Shown in pieces: positions 893 to 11,406 of a stretch of 17,677 nucleotides of DNA. Source of the DNA: a virus; UHGV virus genome UHGV-0132791; one strand, written 5' to 3'. A program made the position numbers and the translations under genes. The stretch's first letter is position 1. Each line of letters opens with the position of its first letter. Under the pieces are notes generated by a model. That model had not been told where the DNA came from, did not search any database, and saw nothing but the letters and a program-made list of their open reading frames with translations.

Positions 893-930
893 GTGTGTTG
901 CAATCATCTCTGTATTGCAGCTTGTATTGC
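893..930 (+). repeat. Cluster of TGT(A/G)TTGCA direct repeats (candidate integrase arm-type sites), left end
   Basis: TGTGTTGCAA (895-904) and TGTATTGCAGCTTGTATTGC (911-930); a near-identical 20-mer (one mismatch) recurs at 11300-11319 near the right end. Confidence 0.5.
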
Positions 931-945
931 TTTTTGGGGCTAAAA

Positions 946-2181
946 ATGGCTGGCGAGAACAAACTGAGCGACAAAGCGCTTAAAGGATATCTGGGGAAAC
1001 CCAGAGAAAAGCAGATCACCATTGCTGATGGAAAGGGGCTTTCTATTCGTGTGAGTACTAAAGGGGCTGTGAGCTTTGTTTTCTTCTACAGGTTAGCAGG
1101 TGGCCGGGCTGCTCCGGTCTGGCTAACGTTGGGTAAATATCCTGATATGTCACTCAAACAGGCAAGGGAAAAGCGCGACGAGTGCCGTGGTTGGTTGGCT
1201 GACAAACGTGATCCGCGTATCCAGATTAAGATTCAGGCTGAAGAACGCTTAAAGCCGGTCACAGTGGAGGATGCACTAAATTACTGGTATGAAAATTACT
1301 GTAAGGTGCGTCGTAAAACTCATGCTGTAACGCTTGGCAGATTTCGAAAGCATATCTTTCCCTATATCGGTCATTTGCCCGTAAATGACACTCACCTATA
1401 TGAATGGCTGGACTGTTTTGACCGAATTAAACGTAATGCACCAGTTATGGCGGCGTATGTTTTTTCTGACACTAAATTAGCTCTTCGTTTTTGTCGGGTA
1501 CGCCAGTACGCGACGTGTGATGCTTTAAAGGATTTGCGCATGAGTGATGTGGGGCAGATTGCAGGTAAGCGGGATCGGGTTCTGGATGAAGCCGAACTCG
1601 GCCAGCTCTGGAAGGCAATTTTTGTCGAGCCTGATTTAAAACTAATGTCTGAATACACGCGAAAAATGTTTGTGCTTTGTACAGTATTTGGATGTCGAAT
1701 GAGTGAAGCCCGATTATCAGAATGGAGCGAATGGGATCTCGAAAGTTGGGTTTGGACTGTACCAAAAGATCACTCAAAAACTGGTGTTGAAATCGTCAGA
1801 CCAGTACCTGAAATTCTACGACAGTGGGTAACGGATGTTCACGAAGAGACAAAACATACTGGTTATGTGCTGGGAAGTCTGCGAATTAGAGAAAGCGTAA
1901 GCAAGATTGGGGGGAAAATCGGTAAACGTTTGGGCCATGAAAAACAATGGTCACTACACGACCTTAGAAGAACGCTATCTACTCATCTAAGTGATCTCGG
2001 TGTTGAATTTTATGTAGTAGAACAACTGTTAGGCCATGCGCTACCTGGCGTGGCAGGTGTTTACAACCGGAGTAAGTTTATGGCTAAAAAACTGGATGCT
2101 CTGGAACTCTGGACTACATATCTCAATAGCATCGCAGGTGCTGATTCAAAAGTGACAATCCTCAAACAAAAGGTTGGTTAA
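946..2181 (+). CDS. int: Tyrosine site-specific integrase, P4-like family
   Basis: ATG at 946 preceded by GGGG; N-terminal arm-binding-type region (…LSDKALKGY…DGKGLSIRVSTKGAVSFVFFYR…WLTLGKYPDMSLKQAR) and C-terminal catalytic motifs (LHDLRRT…LLGHA…GVYNRS). The ORF track starts at a GTG at 895; the ATG at 946 is preferred. Confidence 0.9.
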   Translation: MAGENKLSDKALKGYLGKPREKQITIADGKGLSIRVSTKGAVSFVFFYRLAGGRAAPVWLTLGKYPDMSLKQAREKRDECRGWLADKRDPRIQIKIQAEERLKPVTVEDALNYWYENYCKVRRKTHAVTLGRFRKHIFPYIGHLPVNDTHLYEWLDCFDRIKRNAPVMAAYVFSDTKLALRFCRVRQYATCDALKDLRMSDVGQIAGKRDRVLDEAELGQLWKAIFVEPDLKLMSEYTRKMFVLCTVFGCRMSEARLSEWSEWDLESWVWTVPKDHSKTGVEIVRPVPEILRQWVTDVHEETKHTGYVLGSLRIRESVSKIGGKIGKRLGHEKQWSLHDLRRTLSTHLSDLGVEFYVVEQLLGHALPGVAGVYNRSKFMAKKLDALELWTTYLNSIAGADSKVTILKQKVG

Positions 2182-2410
2182 CATGAAAAAAATGGCAATT
2201 GTTGATAAAAAGGGTCTGGAGTACATTCCTAACATTGACCGAATGATCCGTGAGAAAGAATGTCGGGAGCTAACCACTCTTGCGAACAGCACACGCTGGA
2301 AGCTGGAGAAGGAAGGAAAATTTCCTAAGCGGATCAAGATTGGTTCCACTGCTGTTGCATATCGTCTTTCAGAAGTGCAGGCATGGATTCGAGGTGAGTG
2401 GGTAGTTTAA
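2174..2410 (+). CDS. alpA: AlpA-family HTH protein (putative excisionase / transcriptional activator)
   Basis: Small ORF overlapping the int stop; …LTTLANSTRWKLEKEGKFPKRIKIGSTAVAYRLSEVQAWI is typical of the AlpA/Xis HTH family. ORF-track start is a TTG at 2174; the first ATG is at 2183. Confidence 0.7.
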   Translation: MVNMKKMAIVDKKGLEYIPNIDRMIREKECRELTTLANSTRWKLEKEGKFPKRIKIGSTAVAYRLSEVQAWIRGEWVV

Positions 2411-2435
2411 ATTATCTCAGAATAAAATATTATGA

Positions 2436-2471
2436 ATTACTGATTTGAGAATTTGTACTCAAATCAGTAAT
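2436..2471. terminator. 14-bp perfect inverted repeat between convergent genes (possible bidirectional terminator)
   Basis: ATTACTGATTTGAG (2436-2449) / loop 8 nt / CTCAAATCAGTAAT (2458-2471), between the alpA stop (2410) and the stop of the minus-strand gene (2480). AT-rich stem with no clean T-run, so weak. Confidence 0.35.
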
Positions 2472-2479
2472 AACATTCT

Positions 2480-3016
2480 TTATAAGAGATTAAATCCAAA
2501 TAAAGAGTAATCATATACCGGGGTGCATTGCATCCCACTGAATATGCTGATGTTTTTTTCTGTTTCTATCCTTTTTTCAATAAGTTGTTGTATATTTTTA
2601 CAGTACAATTTGTGTGTGATGTTATTATCGTAAGCCTGATATAGCAACGTCAATGTTGATGCTATGAAACATGCAGAAAGAAAATGAACTAGTACATGTG
2701 AGCGTTTTTTGGTTGTCCATGATGCATTCGCTTGTGAAATATAAATCATTCTGAGAATGATAATGATGATAGACAGTAACAGACCACTCAATAAAATAAG
2801 TATTGGGTTTGCGTATTTAATTAATGGTTGAGAGCAAAAAACTATTATAGCTCCTGTGACTGCGTATGAGAAAAAGGAGTAATTAAACTTCTTACTCCTT
2901 CTCTCAAGTATTTTAATTTCATCTTGTGTGGGGGGTTTAGATGCCTCCAATATAAGTTTATTAAATGTTTCTGTTATCTTGTTTTTTGTGTTTTTGGCTA
3001 TTTTTTTTAGATTCAT
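2480..3016 (-). CDS. Small membrane protein (two predicted hydrophobic helices), function unknown; AT-rich cargo gene
   Basis: 178-aa ORF with hydrophobic stretches (…AVTGAIIVFCSQPLIKYANPILILLSGLLLSIIIIILRMIYI… and …HVLVHFLSACFIASTLTLLYQAY…); visibly lower GC than its neighbours; GGAG-like SD upstream of the ATG (rc of 3014-3016). Confidence 0.6.
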   Translation of the reverse strand: MNLKKIAKNTKNKITETFNKLILEASKPPTQDEIKILERRSKKFNYSFFSYAVTGAIIVFCSQPLIKYANPILILLSGLLLSIIIIILRMIYISQANASWTTKKRSHVLVHFLSACFIASTLTLLYQAYDNNITHKLYCKNIQQLIEKRIETEKNISIFSGMQCTPVYDYSLFGFNLL

Positions 3017-3366
3017 AGCATTCTAACTCCCTTAACTTATTTATTACTTTCTCTTTATGATAAGAGAGGGGAATGACTTGGTAAAGTGATTTGTCATTAA
3101 TAATGATAATCCTTGCGATAAATATTTCTGCAAGTTATTTACCTGTTTGTTGCTATCTTGTTAAGCGTTGGGTGTGGTTTATGTTTGGAGCGACTTTATT
3201 TAATCGTGATTTTATGGATTTATATTTATATCCTGTAAGATAAGCGCATGTTAGTTCAGGAGTAGTGTCAGATAAAATTATTCGGAGTAGAACTACCTTT
3301 TCTGTTTATTGCCAGTATTTACATAGCAATGCGCCGTAGTTACTCACATCACGGCGCTGATACTAA

Positions 3367-3669
3367 TTATTCAGATTCTTTGGCTTTACGCCGCTGGAGT
3401 TCTTCACGAGCGACGGCTACGAGTTGCCCGATTTCCTCCGCTGCCTTGATGCCGATTTGTTCGACCTTAGCTAAGGCATCCAGTGAAGACACGAGGGGAT
3501 TTTCTCCGCTTCCTTCTGCCTGGCGGCGGGCGATCTCACCGCGCATGGCGGTTACTATGAATCCGGCGTTGCTTTCGCCGTCCAGTTTTACGGATTCCAT
3601 GCCCTCCATAACATCGTGGGGAACCCTGATCGTTGTCATTTGCGATTTTGCATTTTTGTATACAGACAT
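3367..3669 (-). CDS. Putative ribbon-helix-helix (Arc/CopG-like) transcriptional regulator; candidate element repressor
   Basis: 100-aa ORF; the N-terminus has an RHH-like pattern (β-strand TTIRVPHDV, helix, G-E-S-N turn, helix AGFIVTAMRGEIARR); transcribed divergently from the main element operon across a repeat-bearing intergenic region. Confidence 0.55.
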   Translation of the reverse strand: MSVYKNAKSQMTTIRVPHDVMEGMESVKLDGESNAGFIVTAMRGEIARRQAEGSGENPLVSSLDALAKVEQIGIKAAEEIGQLVAVAREELQRRKAKESE

Positions 3670-3877
3670 AGTTAATCACCAATTTGTTATGTGTATATCA
3701 CTATACACAAAAGTGAGATATAAAAACACTTGCAATGTATATCACCACAATATAATGTATATCTCATATTATGGTCGCTATGTATCTCACAATGATCGAT
3801 TCATAAAAACGACGAAACCCGGCAGTGCGCGAACACTAACCGGGCTTCTAACCAAACCGTTAAACGAGGTAACGATT
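3670..3877. promoter_or_regulatory. Divergent promoter/operator region with four ATGTATATC(A/T)C-type direct repeats
   Basis: TGTATATCAC at 3692-3701 and 3736-3745, TGTATATCTC at 3756-3765, TGTATCTCAC at 3781-3790; AT-rich; lies between the RHH gene start (3669) and the first gene of the plus-strand operon (3878). Confidence 0.5.
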
Positions 3878-4243
3878 ATGGCTGGAACACAGCATACCCA
3901 AACTCACCCTAAATTTATATACACCTTTCTGGCACTACACCACGACCGCATGGCAGATGGAGCAACTACGGTACATGTTGCCGCTGACACGCTGGTTGAT
4001 GCCCGCAAGATGGTTAAGGAGATGGGCTATACTGCGGCTTTCTGGAAAGGGCGTGAAGAAAACACGCTGTTTATTCAGAAATGCGAAAACAATTTCATCT
4101 GGCGTTTTATCGCCCTGAGCACCGCACAACCACGCGTAATACACATCGAGGCCGCCAGCGAACAGGAAGCCCGCCAACAATCCCCAACTGGCTGCGTGAT
4201 GATATTCGCCGCCCGTATTCGTCAGGAGGTATGCCGTGCTTAA
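3878..4243 (+). CDS. Hypothetical protein (first gene of element early operon)
   Basis: ATG at 3878 with GAGG 9-12 nt upstream. The ORF-track ORF 3329..4243 extends upstream antisense to the RHH gene; that extension is judged spurious. Confidence 0.55.
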   Translation: MAGTQHTQTHPKFIYTFLALHHDRMADGATTVHVAADTLVDARKMVKEMGYTAAFWKGREENTLFIQKCENNFIWRFIALSTAQPRVIHIEAASEQEARQQSPTGCVMIFAARIRQEVCRA

Positions 4244-4421
4244 AACCTTCCGTGTATTTGCTCGTGCGGTTAACCCACTAGGCCACACAATTGGTATCGC
4301 TCAGAACGTGAAGGCTGTTAATGTTCAGACGGCTATTGCTGCGGTGAGAAGCGAATCATCAGAATATGGCTTATCACAAGTCATTATTTCAGCAGTGTAT
4401 GAATTAAAAGAGGTGCATTAA
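4236..4421 (+). CDS. Hypothetical small protein
   Basis: GTG start at 4236 preceded by a strong AGGAGG (4224-4229); overlaps the upstream stop; 61 aa. Confidence 0.45.
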   Translation: MLKTFRVFARAVNPLGHTIGIAQNVKAVNVQTAIAAVRSESSEYGLSQVIISAVYELKEVH

Positions 4422-4612
4422 TGCAGGAAATTACATTACACGAAGCCGCTGAACGTGCGCACCAGACAGAAATTATTTGCCGCCTTCTTGAGGTATACCC
4501 GAACAAAATTACAGATGCTGATATATCCGCACTGGCGAGCCTACTGGCGCGTCTTTCGGGAAGTGTCGCTAGTTTTTTGATTGAGGAAGAAAGTAAGCTG
4601 GTGGGGGATTAA
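4421..4612 (+). CDS. Hypothetical small protein
   Basis: ATG overlapping the upstream stop (TAATG at 4419-4423), AGAGG SD; 63 aa. Confidence 0.5.
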   Translation: MQEITLHEAAERAHQTEIICRLLEVYPNKITDADISALASLLARLSGSVASFLIEEESKLVGD

Positions 4613-4834
4613 ATGAATACAGAACGGGAAGTCTTTTTTAAATTGTTAGCATGTGCAGAAAGTTCATTAACTTTAAATAATTCAGCAAAAGCAATATTAA
4701 ATATGTGGCTTGATTGCATAAATGACAATGAAGATGCAAATATTGCTTATGGCCTGTTGTCACTTATTGATGAAGCAGCAGAAAAACTCAATGACGCAAT
4801 AAATAGTGCCCTGCTATCAAATAAGTCGAGTTAA
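4613..4834 (+). CDS. Hypothetical small protein (AT-rich)
   Basis: ATG immediately after the preceding stop; 73 aa; lower GC than flanking genes. Confidence 0.45.
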   Translation: MNTEREVFFKLLACAESSLTLNNSAKAILNMWLDCINDNEDANIAYGLLSLIDEAAEKLNDAINSALLSNKSS

Positions 4835-4851
4835 GTCGAGGAATAAATAAT

Positions 4852-5151
4852 ATGGAAATGAAAAATTCTGGCTTTATTGCCAGCGGCCCCGCTCGGCCTG
4901 AATTTATGAACGGCGATATTTACCGCGATAAATACGGCGGCACGGTAACGATTAAAGGCGTGGCAGAACGGCGCATTACTTACCGCCGTGAGGGGTATAG
5001 CTATGACTGCGTGATGCCTGTTTATCAGTTCCGGCGTGATTTTTCCCTGGTATATGCCGCACCCCGCAGTAAGCCCATCAGCAGGGAAAAAGCGCGGGGA
5101 AACATCCAGAAAATGAAAAGCATGATTAACGCATTCAGGGGCAAAAAATGA
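4852..5151 (+). CDS. Hypothetical protein
   Basis: 99-aa ORF with GAGG SD; its stop overlaps the pri-rep start (ATGA at 5148-5151). Confidence 0.5.
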   Translation: MEMKNSGFIASGPARPEFMNGDIYRDKYGGTVTIKGVAERRITYRREGYSYDCVMPVYQFRRDFSLVYAAPRSKPISREKARGNIQKMKSMINAFRGKK

Positions 5152-6899
5152 AACTGGCACCGAACTTAAAAAAACAGCCACGCGACAGACTGACAGAGGT
5201 AATCATCTTTGCAGGTAGTGATGCGTGGAGCCATGCGAAAGAGTGGCAGGAATGGGCGGGTAAACATATTGCCGCCGACGATGTGCCGCCTGTCGTGCTG
5301 GCTGATGAGCAACTGAAAAATATCACCGATTACCGGATCATTGATGAAGATCGTCAGTGTGTGCGTGTTTACCGCGCAGGACATATCACAGAGCACAGCA
5401 TGACGCAGATTGTTACGTTATTGGCTGTGGCTGGAGTGAAGACCGTACACGAATACGCGGGGATTACTGACACCAGCCCCGTGGATTTATCCGACCAGTT
5501 GCCGCGACTCAAAGAGGAATGCGAGCGTGGGGAAAGTCTGGTGCTTAATCTTCCGACGAAGCAAAAGGCGCAACTTTCACAGATGGCAGACAGTGAACGT
5601 GCACAACTACTTGCCGATCGCTTTGATGGTGTGTGTGTTCATGCAGAAAGTGAAATCGTCCACGTATGGCGCGGCGGGGTATGGTGTCCGGTCAGCACAA
5701 TGGAGCTGAGCCGCGAAATGGTGGCGATCTATTCAGAGCACAGGGCCACATTCAGCAAGCGTGCAATTAATAACGCCGTGGAGGCGTTAAAAGTTATTGC
5801 CGACCCCATGGGGGAGCCGTCCGGTGATTTGCTACCGTTCGCCAATGGTGTGCTTGACCTGAAAACGGGGGAATTTTCCCCGCACTCGCCGGAGAACTGG
5901 ATCACCACGCACAACGGCATTGAGTACACGCCACCAGCACCAGGGGAGAACATCCGCGACAACGCGCCAAACTTTCATAAATGGCTTGATCACGCAGCCG
6001 GAAAAGACCCGCGCAAGATGATGCGTATATGTGCCGCGCTGTACATGATTATGGCGAACCGGTACGACTGGCAGATGTTTATTGAGGCCACCGGAGAGGG
6101 CGGTAGCGGTAAAAGTACATTCACACACATAGCCAGCCTTCTGGCAGGGAAACAGAACACGGTAAGCGCTGAAATGACATCGCTTGATGATGCTGGTGGA
6201 CGTGCGCAGGTTGTCGGGAGTCGTCTTATCGTCCTGGCTGACCAGCCGAAATATACAGGCGAAGGCACGGGCATCAAGAAAATCACGGGCGGCGACCCCG
6301 TGGAAATAAACCCGAAATATGAAAAGCGTTTTACGGCGGTAATCAGGGCGGTGGTGCTGGCTACCAACAATAACCCGATGATATTCACCGAACGGGCCGG
6401 AGGTGTGTCACGTCGTCGCGTAATTTTCCGCTTCGACAATATCGTTAGCGAGGCAGAAAAGGACAAGGATTTACCGGAGAAGGTCGCGGCTGAAATCCCC
6501 GTGATTATCCGCAGATTGCTGGCAAACTTTGCTGATCCAGAAAAGGCGCGACATTTGTTGATTGAACAGCGCGACGGTGAAGAAGCACTGGCGATAAAGC
6601 AACAGACGGATCCGGTTATTGAGTTTTGCCAGTTTCTGAATTTTCTGGAGGAAGCGCGCGGCCTGATGATGGGTGGCGGTGGCGATTCCGTGAAGTACAC
6701 GACCAGAAACAGCCTTTACCGCGTCTATCTGGCGTTTATGGCATACGCAGGCAGAAGCAAGCCGCTAAACGTGGCTGATTTCAGCAAGGCCATGAAGCCA
6801 GCGGCGAAAGTTTACGGATGTGAATATATAACGCGCAGGGTTAAAGGACTTACGCAAACCAATGTGACAACAACAGAGGATTGCGACGCGTTTTTATAA
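5148..6899 (+). CDS. Replication initiator, primase-helicase type (P4 alpha C-terminal / PICI Pri-Rep-like SF3 ATPase)
   Basis: 583 aa; Walker A GEGGSGKST (6093-6119), Walker B-like LIVLAD; overall pattern of the phage/plasmid primase P4-family C-terminal domain; followed directly by an iteron array. Confidence 0.85.
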   Translation: MKLAPNLKKQPRDRLTEVIIFAGSDAWSHAKEWQEWAGKHIAADDVPPVVLADEQLKNITDYRIIDEDRQCVRVYRAGHITEHSMTQIVTLLAVAGVKTVHEYAGITDTSPVDLSDQLPRLKEECERGESLVLNLPTKQKAQLSQMADSERAQLLADRFDGVCVHAESEIVHVWRGGVWCPVSTMELSREMVAIYSEHRATFSKRAINNAVEALKVIADPMGEPSGDLLPFANGVLDLKTGEFSPHSPENWITTHNGIEYTPPAPGENIRDNAPNFHKWLDHAAGKDPRKMMRICAALYMIMANRYDWQMFIEATGEGGSGKSTFTHIASLLAGKQNTVSAEMTSLDDAGGRAQVVGSRLIVLADQPKYTGEGTGIKKITGGDPVEINPKYEKRFTAVIRAVVLATNNNPMIFTERAGGVSRRRVIFRFDNIVSEAEKDKDLPEKVAAEIPVIIRRLLANFADPEKARHLLIEQRDGEEALAIKQQTDPVIEFCQFLNFLEEARGLMMGGGGDSVKYTTRNSLYRVYLAFMAYAGRSKPLNVADFSKAMKPAAKVYGCEYITRRVKGLTQTNVTTTEDCDAFL

Positions 6900-7185: not shown

Positions 7186-7443
7186 ATGCACACATCAGGA
7201 AAACTGAACAAACATATAAAGCCACATTACCGCGCCCTTGATATGGCTGAACATTGGCTAAGGGTGGCGATTAAGGCAATAGATCGCAACGCCGGGGAAG
7301 GATACGCGAAAGCACATCCCGAACTGATAAGCGCATTCATGACAACGGCGGCTGCAAACTTTGCCACGCTGACCGAACGGGAGATTGCCGAAGCGGAGGA
7401 AGTGACAACCATCAATATTAAGTCCGGAGAGCAGGCAGCTTGA
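7186..7443 (+). CDS. Hypothetical protein
   Basis: 85-aa ORF, ATG at 7186 preceded by GAGGGGG; stop overlaps the start of the next gene. Confidence 0.5.
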   Translation: MHTSGKLNKHIKPHYRALDMAEHWLRVAIKAIDRNAGEGYAKAHPELISAFMTTAAANFATLTEREIAEAEEVTTINIKSGEQAA

Positions 7444-7850
7444 CGGCGCAAATAGCAGCTTACGGGCGGCTGGTGGACGACCCACAGGTAAAACATACCA
7501 GCAAGGGAGCACCCATGACACTGGCACGGATGACGGTATCTTTGCCATGCAGCCAGGCAGATGACGGAACGGCGACGATGTGGTTATCTGTCCTGGCGTT
7601 TGGCAGACAAGCCGACGCGCTGGCAAAGCATCACAAAGGCGAACTCCTGAGCGTGGCGGGTAATATGCAGGTGAGCCAGTGGAGCGGACAGAACGGTGAA
7701 ACGCGGCAGCGCTGGCAGGTTATCGCAGACAGCGTAATCAGTGCGCGAACGGTGCGACCTGGCGGGAACAGACGTAAAACCACAGGCACACAGGGCAACA
7801 CACCACCAGCGGGAGGGGATGATCTCTACGGTGACAATATTCCATTCTGA
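7440..7850 (+). CDS. ssb: Single-stranded DNA-binding protein (SSB-like, OB fold)
   Basis: Pattern resembling E. coli SSB (…GRLVDDPQV…, …WLSVLAFGRQADALAKHHKGELLSVAGNMQVSQWSGQNGETRQRWQVIAD…) and a C-terminal tip …DNIPF like the SSB DDDIPF tail. Start is a TTG at 7440 overlapping the upstream stop; exact start uncertain. Confidence 0.7.
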   Translation: MTAQIAAYGRLVDDPQVKHTSKGAPMTLARMTVSLPCSQADDGTATMWLSVLAFGRQADALAKHHKGELLSVAGNMQVSQWSGQNGETRQRWQVIADSVISARTVRPGGNRRKTTGTQGNTPPAGGDDLYGDNIPF

Positions 7851-8114: not shown

Positions 8115-9155
8115 ATGAGTGATTTATATTCGCCAGCGGAGTTAATACAGACTGTTAATGCTGAAGATATTCAATGGCAGATTAACTCTTTATTTATAAA
8201 CCTGTTTTTTAAGCGAGTCGTTACATTTGAGACGCGGGATATTGCGCTTGATATTATTGACGATCCAGACATCCCGATGGCTGCATTTTGTTCCCCTATG
8301 GTTGGTAGTAAAGTATCACGCGATGAAGGCTACGAATCAAAAGTAATTCGCCCTGGCTACATGAAGCCAAAAAGTAGTATAGACCCAAATAAAATAGCCG
8401 TTCGTCAACCAGGCGTATCACCGGAACAATTCAATGCATATTCATCACGCAATTTCAAAATAAAGCGAGCGATGGTAAGACAAGCGCAGGCCATTCGCGC
8501 ACGTATTGAATGGCTTGCTGTTCAGGCAATCACAACGGGGAAAAATATCATTGAGGGCGATGGCATTGAACGTTATGAACTGGACTGGAATATAAAACCA
8601 CAAAATATTATCACGCAGTCCGGCGGCACGGAGTGGAGCGGTAGAGATTTATCAACATTTGATCCAAATGATGACATCGAAGAGTACGCAGAAATCAGCG
8701 AAGGGACTACAAATATCATCGTAATGGGACGCAACGTATGGAAAAAATACCGCGCCTTTAAAGCAGTAAAAGATTGCCTTGATACTCGACGGGGATCTAA
8801 TTCCGTTCTTGAAACGGCCCTGAAAAATCTTGGGGATTCCGTCAGTTTTAAGGGTTACGTAGGCGATGTGGCTATTGTTGTGTATAGCGGACGTTATACC
8901 GACGAGGACGGAACAGAAAAATATTTCCTTGATCCTGATTTGATGGTTCTTGGCAATACATCACTTCAGGGCATCGTTGCATACGGTGGCATTCAGGATC
9001 CGGAGCTAATCCGAATGGGGCTGACTAAAGCCGAACTCGCACCGAAAAACTACATTGTGCCTGGAGATCCGGCTATTGAGTACGTACAAACGCACTCTGC
9101 ACCACAGCCAATACCGGCCCGCATCAATCGTTTTGTTACCGTTCGCATTGGTTAA
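8115..9155 (+). CDS. Element-encoded major capsid protein, lambda gpE paralogue
   Basis: 346 aa; clearly homologous but divergent from gpE (shared blocks PGYMKPK, ITQSGGTEWS.RD.ST.DP.DDIEEYA, KAVKD.LDTRRGSNS.LETA.K.LG..VS.KGY.GDVAIVVYSG.Y, MVLGNT); strong SD AAGAGG. Confidence 0.9.
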   Translation: MSDLYSPAELIQTVNAEDIQWQINSLFINLFFKRVVTFETRDIALDIIDDPDIPMAAFCSPMVGSKVSRDEGYESKVIRPGYMKPKSSIDPNKIAVRQPGVSPEQFNAYSSRNFKIKRAMVRQAQAIRARIEWLAVQAITTGKNIIEGDGIERYELDWNIKPQNIITQSGGTEWSGRDLSTFDPNDDIEEYAEISEGTTNIIVMGRNVWKKYRAFKAVKDCLDTRRGSNSVLETALKNLGDSVSFKGYVGDVAIVVYSGRYTDEDGTEKYFLDPDLMVLGNTSLQGIVAYGGIQDPELIRMGLTKAELAPKNYIVPGDPAIEYVQTHSAPQPIPARINRFVTVRIG

Positions 9156-9164
9156 GGGGGAGCA

Positions 9165-9506
9165 ATGGCTACTCATTACACTGAACTCATGGCTGGCACT
9201 GAAGCACTGGTTACTACGTTGGGGATATTTTCAGCTAATAAAGGGGTAATTCCTGCATTTACGCCACTGATGCAAGAAGATGCAACTGGTGCACTGGTGG
9301 TATGGGATGGAACGAGCGCAGGCAAAGCTGTTTATGTTTCCGCTGTACAAATCGATACAGCGACAAAAACGCAGGCTCAGGTTTATAAAACCGGCGTCTT
9401 AAATGTTGATGCTCTGAACTGGCCTGAGTCTGTAACACAACTATCAGCAAAAGTTGCTGCGTTTGTTGGCTCAGGTATTTCTGTTCAGCCGCTGGCACGT
9501 GTGTGA
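9165..9506 (+). CDS. Element-encoded head decoration protein, lambda gpD paralogue
   Basis: 113 aa; gpD-like blocks (TPLM…LVVWDGT…YKTG…WPE…) and length; immediately downstream of the capsid paralogue, with SD AAGGGGGAG. Confidence 0.8.
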   Translation: MATHYTELMAGTEALVTTLGIFSANKGVIPAFTPLMQEDATGALVVWDGTSAGKAVYVSAVQIDTATKTQAQVYKTGVLNVDALNWPESVTQLSAKVAAFVGSGISVQPLARV

Positions 9507-9515
9507 GGTACGAGA

Positions 9516-9860
9516 ATGATTGAAAGAGATAGTCAGCTACGAGAGCTATTAGATATCGATGACAAAATGCGCTTAAGCGAGCGTCTTGTCGATATGAATC
9601 AGGTGATGGAACTTACAACCCTGAGTCGCCGTACACTGCTAAACCTTGAGGCTCGTGGAGAGTTCCCTGAGCGTGTGCAGGTTACGGAAGGGCGTAAGGC
9701 TTGGTATTTAAGCGAGGTTGTTGAGTGGATTAACAATATCCCGCGAGCATCAAACTATTGCCTCGTACCCACACCGGAAAAACCTGATGCGGCGTTATGC
9801 CTCAAGATTGAACGCGCCAGGCGTAATGCCCTGAAAGGGCGCAATAAGTTGATTGGTTGA
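9516..9860 (+). CDS. Second AlpA-family HTH regulator
   Basis: 114 aa; …MNQVMELTTLSRRTLLNLEARGEFPERVQVTEGRKAWYLSEVVEWI… is AlpA/HTH_17-like; located between the decoration gene and the cos site. Confidence 0.7.
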   Translation: MIERDSQLRELLDIDDKMRLSERLVDMNQVMELTTLSRRTLLNLEARGEFPERVQVTEGRKAWYLSEVVEWINNIPRASNYCLVPTPEKPDAALCLKIERARRNALKGRNKLIG

Positions 9861-9950: not shown

Positions 9951-10076
9951 GCATTTTTAGGGGACTGGTGGTGGTTTTGTTGTTCGCTATATCTGTATGA
10001 ATAATAAGAGAAAAACACAATCAACACACCAACCTGAAACAGTAATTAAGTTGTGGTATCAATGAAATTGCACCTG

Positions 10077-10604
10077 ATGAACAAAAAAAACATGGCAAAA
10101 AGTTGCCGTGTAAGCGCCACTGCGTTCGATAAGTGGGGAGTGATTCCCGTCGAGCGTAAGGGCCGCGAGGCGTTTTATGATGTCGCCAGTGTAATAGATA
10201 ATCGGGTTAACAATGCAATCAGCCAGATTACAAACGAAACGGGCGAGATTGATGATGATGAACTCCTACGAGTCAGGATCAGATTGCTGACAGCACAGGC
10301 AGAGGCGCAGGAGCTTAAAAACGAGCGCGAACGCGGCGACGTTATTGATACAGCGTTTTGTATATACGTGCTTTCAAAACTGGCGAGTCAGATTTCTTCA
10401 ATCATGGACAGCCTGCCGCTTGCCATGACAAGGAAGTTTCCCGACATGAAGCCGTCTATGCTGGATGGACTGAAAAAAGAAGTTATCAGAGCCTGTAACG
10501 CATGCGCAAAACTTGACGAAAACATACCGCTGATGCTGTCCGATTATCTGATGGAAACTGCCGGAAACGTACCGGATAAGTTGCAGCTGAATAAAGATAA
10601 GTAA
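10077..10604 (+). CDS. Terminase small subunit, lambda Nu1-like
   Basis: Homology to lambda Nu1 (MNKKNMAKS…YDVASVID…LLTAQAEAQELKNERERGDVIDTAFCIYVLSKLASQISSIMDSLPLAMTRKFPDMK vs Nu1 …LTRAQADAQELKNARDSAEVVETAFCTFVLSRIAGEIASILDGLPLSVQRRFPELE). ORF track begins at a GTG at 10053; ATG 10077 is chosen by alignment with the Nu1 N-terminus. Confidence 0.85.
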   Translation: MNKKNMAKSCRVSATAFDKWGVIPVERKGREAFYDVASVIDNRVNNAISQITNETGEIDDDELLRVRIRLLTAQAEAQELKNERERGDVIDTAFCIYVLSKLASQISSIMDSLPLAMTRKFPDMKPSMLDGLKKEVIRACNACAKLDENIPLMLSDYLMETAGNVPDKLQLNKDK

Positions 10605-11396: not shown

Positions 11397-11406
11397 AACC
11401 CAAGCA
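11397..11406 (+). repeat. Right copy of 10-bp att core / target duplication (AACCCAAGCA)
   Basis: Identical to 773-782; preceded by an in-frame TAA (11396-11398) that ends the element-side frame. Confidence 0.75.

Follow-up and report, generated by a model that had tools for sequence, protein, structure and literature searches.

Phage P22 has an immI region in which the ribbon-helix-helix (RHH) repressors Mnt and Arc act together with the sar antisense RNA. The plasmid copy-control proteins CopG (pMV158) and ORF56 (pRN1) are co-transcribed with a replication gene. The Stl and Rpr repressors of the SaPIs (pathogenicity islands of Staphylococcus aureus) and Gram-positive phage-inducible chromosomal islands (PICIs) belong to the helix-turn-helix (HTH) proteins. 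Here we describe a candidate repressor-operator module in a 17,677-nt stretch of the virus genome UHGV-0132791 (the whole stretch is called the window), in which a lambdoid prophage is interrupted by a PICI-type satellite. The regulator gene (3367–3669, minus strand, 100 aa plus stop) codes for a predicted RHH protein of the YlcI/YnfO family. It is divergent from an operon that runs from a gene for an Icd-like (host cell division inhibitor-like) protein to a primase gene, with a control region of 208 bp between them.

Stl/Rpr repressors are inactivated by helper proteins, and Gram-negative PICIs are turned on via the activator AlpA (Fillol-Salom et al., PMC6092414). AlpA was identified as the activator of EcCICFT073; its over-expression alone in a non-lysogen led to excision and runaway replication of this island, and the helper works on it by raising alpA expression (PMC6092414). 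AlpA is the only regulator described there. Whether Gram-negative PICIs possess a global repressor was left unclear in that 2018 paper, in which the RHH gene and the Icd-like gene of EcCICFT073 are undiscussed (PMC6092414). The helper-embedded PICI (HE-PICI) 11capE was described by Tommasini, Mageeney and Williams in 2023 (PMC10111431). The RHH gene is unmentioned there, all non-hypothetical genes of 11capE are said to share one direction, and helper late transcription is proposed to read through into 11capE (PMC10111431). In a 2026 survey of capsid-forming PICIs, the RHH protein appears merely as a "prophage-associated protein".

Candidate operators and their covariation with the N-terminal arm

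The control region contains five 10-bp sites with the minus-strand consensus GTGATATACA, 20 to 25 bp apart (approximately two helical turns). Two promoters were read from the sequence. P_R, the rightward promoter of the Icd-like-DUF4222-primase-SSB operon, is at 3730–3756 (plus strand; TTGCAA, 15-nt spacer, TATAAT) and the -10 element of the RHH gene promoter (TATAGT) is at 3700–3705 on the minus strand. Site O1 (GTGATATACA, 3692–3701, minus strand) abuts this -10 and lies over the predicted start of the RHH transcript. O2 (GTGAGATATA, 3713–3722, plus strand) is inverted relative to O1, and together they bracket the -10 element. O3 (GTGATATACA, 3736–3745, minus strand) falls within the -35/-10 spacer of P_R, O4 (GAGATATACA, 3756–3765, minus strand) starts on the final base of the P_R -10 and extends over the predicted +1, and O5 (GTGAGATACA, 3781–3790, minus strand) is in the P_R leader. 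All four matches with no more than one mismatch in the 17.7-kb window fall in 3692–3790; the fifth copy there is inverted. In 34 kb of a composite prophage, matches at the same stringency are confined to this region except for one isolated match that has one mismatch (L001, position 6157). An operator-like sequence at 3914–3923, inside the Icd-like open reading frame (ORF), was rejected; the same sequence is kept in two related loci of other operator classes (L013 and L015). We consider it very probable that the RHH protein binds O1 to O5 in a sequence-specific manner, and likely, from the position of the sites, that it represses P_R.

The initial annotation had proposed the protein as a candidate master repressor that would keep the element silent. 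No operator copy was found near int or alpA in the window or in the 34 kb of composite prophage, and the master role is unproven. The predicted regulon is local, since no operator is found near int/alpA or elsewhere in the prophage examined.

Eighteen related loci were compared. They belong to Escherichia, Klebsiella, Enterobacter, Erwinia, Serratia, Xenorhabdus, Photorhabdus and Phytobacter, eight genera in all. The gene order int - alpA - [cargo] - RHH gene (minus strand) / P_R operon (plus strand) was found in every locus examined, EcCICFT073 included. The promoter scaffold is kept in the 18 loci, as are the repeat positions (approximately -30, -52, -75 and -97, counted from the start codon), and all repeat copies of a locus change together. 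The repeats form eight classes which track residues 10 to 14 of the protein arm. The window class has arm QMTTI and repeat GTGATATACA. Arm QLTTV or QLFTV goes with repeat TGAAACACAC, QSLTA with GTCTTACACC, QLKNI or QVKNV with AAATACACACC, QMKNI with GGTGTGCA or GTACACACC, QQ(I/L)NA with GGTATTCA or GGGATTCA, KQISI (L013) with TGAATCACA and QALKA (EcCICFT073) with GTGGCCCAC. For repeated 7-mers, the mean Jaccard index is 0.37 between loci with identical arms and 0.014 between those with arms ≤50% identical.

A near-identical element, L013, comes from E. coli GCA_014103455. The window and L013 share 97.6% identity over 2101–3622 and 98.7% over 3842–4235, with AlpA 100% and the Icd-like protein 99% identical. 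Positions 3623–3841 in between (~220 bp) are swapped for a divergent cassette, which holds codons 1 to 16 of the RHH gene, every operator and the terminator hairpin of an antisense RNA (see below). Judging from these alignments, we regard the cassette as a natural specificity swap. AlpA and the Icd-like protein are excluded as readers of the repeats because they are near-identical in L013 while the repeats differ, and AlpA was rejected as a repeat binder on this ground.

It could still be argued that another protein (AlpA, the primase or a host factor) binds the repeats, or that they are replication iterons, and that the RHH ORF is unrelated to them. P4-family primases bind iterons, and the primase alleles of the window and L013 are only 51% identical, as this alternative would have it. 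The swapped block, however, ends at about codon 16 of the RHH gene, and the 98.7%-identical stretch separates it from the primase gene. The primase is also an unlikely reader since DUF927-type primases occur with two repeat classes (L002 versus L017/L018), and AlpA does not differ at all between the two loci. The published origin of Gram-negative PICIs is downstream of pri (PMC10111431). We give this alternative almost no weight.

Concerted change of four to five copies within a kept scaffold is what repressor-operator coevolution would be expected to produce, and physical linkage alone does not account for it. The repeat classes, the cassette swap and the register of an alignment with Arc (next section), all of them indirect, comparative evidence, point to sequence-specific DNA recognition via alternate beta-strand side chains, the mode of RHH proteins.

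Fold and family of the predicted regulator

The minus-strand ORF at 3367–3669 has an ATG start and 100 codons, and contains the sequence MSVYKNAKSQMTTIRVPHDVMEGMESVKLDGESNAGF quoted in the initial annotation. Its product is identical to RefSeq WP_001588496.1 from E. coli 382634_2f, labelled "YlcI/YnfO family protein", and the same protein is found unchanged in several complete E. coli genomes in RefSeq. Residues 8 to 49 match the full length (1 to 42 of 42) of the NCBIfam model NF041551 (YlcI_YnfO_N) with E=8.5e-20 and 70.5 bits, above the curated cutoff of 30 bits. PHROG 6522 (unknown function) is matched with E=1.7e-61. The ratio of nonsynonymous to synonymous substitution rates (dN/dS) against ten homologues, in comparisons with unsaturated synonymous sites, is 0.05 to 0.38, which marks the ORF as a genuine coding gene. 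An opposite-strand ORF of 304 codons (3329–4243) is spurious in its part upstream of 3878, the true start of the Icd-like gene. The regulator gene had been taken for the only divergently transcribed ORF of regulator size. A predicted membrane ORF of 178 aa (2480–3016) is on the minus strand too, although it is not regulator-like. The YlcI/YnfO family is small (a set of 1.84 billion proteins holds 94 of its clusters, at 50% identity), and homologues are called Arc-like or CopG by some sources.

Structure prediction had been suggested as a check of the RHH assignment. AlphaFold2 prediction of the full-length protein from a 39-sequence alignment gave an extended N-terminus followed by helices at 18–27, 34–54 and 58–99, with a mean predicted local distance difference test score (pLDDT) of 79. 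Residues 1 to 56 alone, predicted from a more diverse alignment, gave pLDDT 84, a predicted template modelling score (pTM) of 0.60 and helices at 18–27 and 34–52. The models are of a single chain, and the strand was not called in the monomer, as is expected for a single chain even if the fold is RHH. Helix-helix topology after an extended N-terminus is consistent with RHH. The predicted N-terminal DNA-binding domain (residues 1–56; 3502–3669, minus strand) consists of an arm/strand at 11–17 (MTTIRVP), helix A (18–27), a turn (D30-G31-E32-S33-N34) and helix B (34 to 52/54). The signature parts named in the initial annotation (strand, GESN turn, second helix) are all present, and with helix A they give a strand-helix-helix topology over ~45 residues in which a short turn of the G-x-S/T/N type precedes helix B. 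E32 of the turn and R15 and P17 of the arm are invariant. An alignment of the family, extended to ~30% identity, has the pattern xxVRFPxDLLxxhxxhxxxxESxxxFhxxAhxxEIxRR, which we read as a typical RHH pattern.

Profile comparison with Arc by hhalign gave a probability of 11%, in register (TTIRVP/FNLRWP and GES/GRS). In this alignment residues 11, 13 and 15 are opposite Q9, N11 and R13 of Arc, its base-contacting residues. The same comparison with Mnt gave a probability of 0.9%, which lends no support to homology. Sub-threshold Pfam matches recur in the family: PSK_trans_fac (14 of 38 members), DUF7557 and HicB_lk_antitox, all of which we take to belong with RHH families. The PSK_trans_fac match has E=0.019 for the window protein and 9.8e-4 for the best of the 38 members, with scores under the cutoff. 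There was no significant Pfam match to a curated RHH family. A PDB sequence search and two profile searches (phmmer, hmmsearch) found nothing below E=0.3, and Foldseek searches of the PDB with the full-length and N-terminal models gave no significant hit; the C-terminal helix dominates the full-length model. No HTH family of Pfam or NCBIfam was matched and the fold matches are to RHH proteins, which agrees with the earlier assignment of an RHH rather than a cI/Stl-like HTH repressor. On these models and alignments, we consider the RHH fold of the YlcI/YnfO protein well supported but not proven.

The C-terminal region (residues 58–100; 3370–3498, minus strand) is a predicted amphipathic helix with a highly conserved SSLDAL...IG motif. 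AlphaFold2 places a helix at 58–99 (pLDDT >90 for residues 70–90), with a hydrophobic moment of 0.96 and a weak heptad preference. These ~45 residues vary less than the DNA-reading arm, and L59, S62, L63, L66, I72 and G73 are invariant. A charged, probably oligomerising C-terminal region had been proposed for this half. A long amphipathic helix is indeed predicted, but it is absent from the EcCICFT073 homologue and from many family members. Three kinds of tail are found in the family: the long SSLDAL...IG helix, an unrelated stretch of ~40 residues (AEDAIVSAL...) and no tail at all (proteins of 59–64 aa). Since the RHH domain occurs with three tail kinds, the tail is apparently a swappable module. 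The helix may serve in oligomerisation or partner binding; Mnt-like oligomerisation would suit cooperative binding at sites two helical turns apart.

Directly 3' of the RHH stop codon is a GC-rich hairpin (3331–3357, minus strand; GCGCCGT...ACGGCGC), which is kept in EcCICFT073. Several other islands have a small basic ORF of 55 to 84 aa after the hairpin position; it is absent in the window and in L013.

RHH proteins may also be antitoxins. The protein would then bind a toxin, either the Icd-like protein or a small protein encoded downstream, and DNA binding would be secondary. In the window, no ORF of at least 40 aa follows on the same strand before 3016. The stop codon is followed by 350 bp of non-coding DNA with the hairpin, and the next ORF comes with a promoter-like site of its own. 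The small downstream ORF of other islands is missing here and in L013, and PADLOC gave no match. An antisense RNA is already the partner of the Icd-like gene, which lies on the opposite strand. With no partner gene, the toxin-antitoxin reading was rejected as highly improbable.

A SymR-like antisense RNA and a model of local control

A second candidate control element overlaps the start of the operon. A SymR-like cis-antisense RNA of ~79 nt is predicted at 3805–3883 on the minus strand from Rfam and RNAalifold, with a minimum free energy of -33.8 kcal/mol and a -10 element TATGCT at 3891–3896 (minus strand). It is complementary to the Icd-like ORF at the Shine-Dalgarno sequence and the start codon. 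The loop of hairpin 1 presents CCUC, an anti-Shine-Dalgarno sequence; hairpin 2 is an intrinsic terminator and is followed by a U-run. RNAalifold on 14 loci gave 23 consensus pairs, 11 of them with compensatory changes. The Rfam model of the type I antitoxin RNA SymR (symR, RF01809), the one family that the RNA resembles, scores 35.3 bits (E=2.7e-4), under its gathering score of 61, so that we call the RNA SymR-like and do not assign it to the family. In L002, L005 and L011, SymR is likewise the sole Rfam match at the corresponding position (29.9 to 38.7 bits). As the RNA overlaps both the ribosome-binding site and the start codon of the Icd-like gene, it should block translation of this gene. 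P4-type immunity RNA has been reported in some PICIs (PMC10111431). In the window, the Rfam models C4 and isrK gave no match at the gathering threshold, and none with E≤10 in 2400–5200.

Our best explanation is that the RHH protein acts as a local repressor on the replication operon and regulates its own gene as well. Taken as a whole, derepression route included, we hold this with slightly better than even confidence. We infer dimer binding, repression and autoregulation as follows. The arm and beta-strand (residues ~8–17) would pair in the dimer and read the GTGATATACA-type 10-bp sites. Occupation of O3 and O4 would occlude RNA polymerase at P_R and keep the Icd-like-DUF4222-primase-SSB operon off, and occupation of O1 and O2 would limit the RHH gene's own promoter. 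In the integrated element, the replication/early operon would be silent, including the probably toxic Icd-like protein, and the antisense RNA would be a further lock on the Icd-like gene, at the level of translation. Control would be local and not global. The derepression route is speculative. Induction would most likely come from upstream, by AlpA-activated or, in this embedded element, Q-antiterminated helper late transcription passing through the convergent RHH gene into the primase operon. Transcriptional interference with the RHH gene and titration of the repressor by replicating copies could add to it. Inactivation of the RHH repressor by a helper protein is probably not needed for induction.

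Several points weigh against this explanation. The RHH promoter has a poor -35, none being recognisable, and P_R in the window has an unusual 15-nt spacer and was not called by the promoter scan. The covariation statistics, among them a Spearman correlation with repeat similarity of 0.54 for the arm versus 0.09 for the region of helices A and B, favour the explanation but are uncorrected for phylogeny. The arm codons are less than 100 bp from the repeats, so physical linkage in a recombining block contributes to the covariation. Unless RNA polymerase is antiterminated, an AT-rich palindrome at 2436–2471 could end read-through from alpA. No functional study of YlcI, YnfO or DUF3950 came up in our literature search. 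As to the promoters, P_R went uncalled because its spacer is only 15 nt; the homologous P_R was called by the scan in L020 (TTGACG-17-TAACAT) and in EcCICFT073 (TTGACG-18-TATAGT). At the RHH -10 position, TATAAT, TATACT or TATATT is kept in related loci.

The same sites would also suit a copy-number controller like CopG or ORF56, which damps the primase operon during replication; silence of the integrated element would then come from lack of AlpA and from the antisense RNA. This differs from local repression in timing only, and the present data do not separate the two. However, a near-consensus P_R (TATAAT in the window, TTGACG in relatives) would fire constitutively, so a standing repressor should be needed when the element is integrated. 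We put a low probability on the copy-number reading.

EcCICFT073 (1,377,930–1,388,654 of NC_004431.1) bears on how repression is lifted. It has the same int-alpA-RHH/Icd-like-primase-SSB-capsid order as the window element. Its YlcI/YnfO homologue C_RS30120 has 59 aa (18474–18653, minus strand, of locus L024; 1380473–1380652 of NC_004431.1) and is divergent from the Icd-like gene C_RS30125; both are late-added locus tags. On the same promoter scaffold, EcCICFT073 has the repeat GGTGTGGCCCAC twice and GTCCCCCACC once.

The initial annotation supposed that the repressor senses a helper protein. In its stronger form, an Stl-like master repressor would hold the whole satellite silent, and a helper protein would bind the C-terminal helix and lift it off the DNA. 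The operators on the promoter of the replication operon would fit such a protein, and the C-terminal 45 residues vary less across genera than the arm, as would be expected of a surface for a conserved partner. The divergent repressor/replication-operon layout is also like that of Gram-positive PICIs (PMC6092414). On the other hand, neither int nor alpA has an operator nearby, the EcCICFT073 homologue is without the C-terminal helix, and forms of 59 to 64 aa are common in the family. For EcCICFT073, which carries the homologous module, AlpA alone sufficed for full induction in a non-lysogen (PMC6092414). This weakens the case for helper-protein sensing and, for the short homologue, contradicts a master repressor of this kind; with that form at any rate, a helper anti-repressor is unnecessary because AlpA alone induces the island. 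We find an Stl-like master repressor improbable.

A bolder extension of local repression can be offered tentatively, and we are inclined to doubt it. The RHH protein and the SymR-like RNA would together be the missing quiescence/immunity switch of Gram-negative PICIs (classical, helper-embedded and capsid-forming). Eight or more immunity groups would be defined by the 220-bp cassette of beta-arm codons and operators, so that co-resident satellites ignore each other, and the C-terminal helix of the long form would be the surface where a helper or host protein lifts repression.

The satellite element and its relation to known systems

The window is the head-tail region of a lambdoid prophage, interrupted by an element of ~10.6 kb; the same layout is also seen in RefSeq genomes. 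A lambda D-like gene (150–482) is followed by the start of a lambda E-like capsid gene (~82 codons, ORF 538–813), which is interrupted at a 10-bp attachment (att) core. The core AACCCAAGCA is found as a direct repeat at 773–782 and 11397–11406, the bounds of the element, and the helper's E-like capsid gene continues past the second copy. An HE-PICI is an element of ~10–20 kb that sits within a late gene of a prophage, in the same orientation as that gene and with a direct repeat on either side (described in PMC10111431). The window element has int, alpA and a P4-type primase gene co-oriented, a capsid-gene insertion (cap_E site) and the direct repeat. It is an 11capE-type helper-embedded PICI, a kind already published.

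The element begins with int (895–2181, plus strand) and alpA (2174–2410, plus strand), both assigned by profile searches. The palindrome at 2436–2471, with a 14-bp stem, is between alpA and the membrane ORF and looks like a bidirectional terminator. The AT-rich membrane ORF (2480–3016, minus strand, with the promoter-like site of its own mentioned above) is cargo between alpA and the RHH gene; it had no family match in Pfam, PHROGs, NCBIfam or PADLOC. On the other side of the control region, the Icd-like gene (3878–4243, plus strand, 121 aa) matches NCBIfam NF033153 (E=7.8e-22) and PHROG 1743/6196, and small ORFs come after it. Then follow DUF4222 (4852–5151, plus strand), the P4-family primase gene (5148–6899, plus strand; D5_N/DUF5906, assigned by Pfam and TIGR01613), which is the main cargo of the controlled operon, and SSB (7440–7850, plus strand). 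The element has its own E-like capsid gene (8115–9155, plus strand), divergent in sequence from the helper's, and its own D-like decoration gene (9165–9506, plus strand).

A second AlpA-domain protein of 114 aa (9516–9860, plus strand; Pfam PF05930, E=2e-9) is encoded between the decoration gene and the gene for a Nu1-like small terminase (10053–10604, plus strand). It may act in packaging redirection or as a late regulator. In a PADLOC scan of the RHH protein, the membrane ORF and four other element ORFs, this ORF had weak matches (E ~0.004 to 0.007); the RHH protein and the membrane ORF had none.

The RHH-operator module with its antisense RNA is a conserved and overlooked candidate for the Gram-negative PICI repressor left open in 2018. 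It is found at the promoter of the replication operon in all related islands examined, EcCICFT073 among them. In later genomic work the RHH gene was labelled hypothetical, or its product an accessory "prophage-associated protein". The analysis also proposes a probable function for the uncharacterised YlcI/YnfO family, and orthogonal repressor-operator pairs could be drawn from the natural specificity swaps. Should the protein be only a local autoregulator, the result is an ordinary one, one more small RHH repressor.

Among relatives by sequence, YlcI (DLP12) and YnfO (Qin) of E. coli K-12 have the N-terminal 42-residue domain (NF041551) in common with the window protein. The K-12 genes are presumably in lambdoid prophage late regions near small-terminase homologues, and not beside an Icd-like/primase operon. 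The window antisense RNA resembles SymR of the E. coli SymE/SymR pair in length (~77–79 nt), in starting just inside the target ORF and covering its start codon and Shine-Dalgarno sequence, and in its two hairpins and terminator-loop sequences. Unlike SymR, it targets the Icd-like gene and not symE. The element itself is like 11capE in organisation and in the kind of insertion site (10-bp att core, lambda E-like capsid gene).

By function, the P22 immI region would be the closest analogue and plasmid copy control by CopG/ORF56 the second. Mnt and Arc have no significant sequence homology with the RHH protein by hhalign, and they bind one operator of 17–21 bp whereas the window has five 10-bp sites spaced ~22 bp apart. 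The window operon codes for the Icd-like protein and the primase in place of the P22 antirepressor, and the host element is a satellite and not a phage. Unlike the CopG and ORF56 genes, the RHH gene here is divergent from the replication operon, and its product has an extra C-terminal helix of 45 residues. Stl/Rpr genes occupy the same place, between int and the replication module, and are likewise divergent (PMC6092414), but the RHH protein differs from Stl, Rpr and cI in matching no HTH family in Pfam or NCBIfam. It is a mechanistically ordinary kind of regulator, and its interest is in the context: satellites, an antisense RNA and swapped cassettes.

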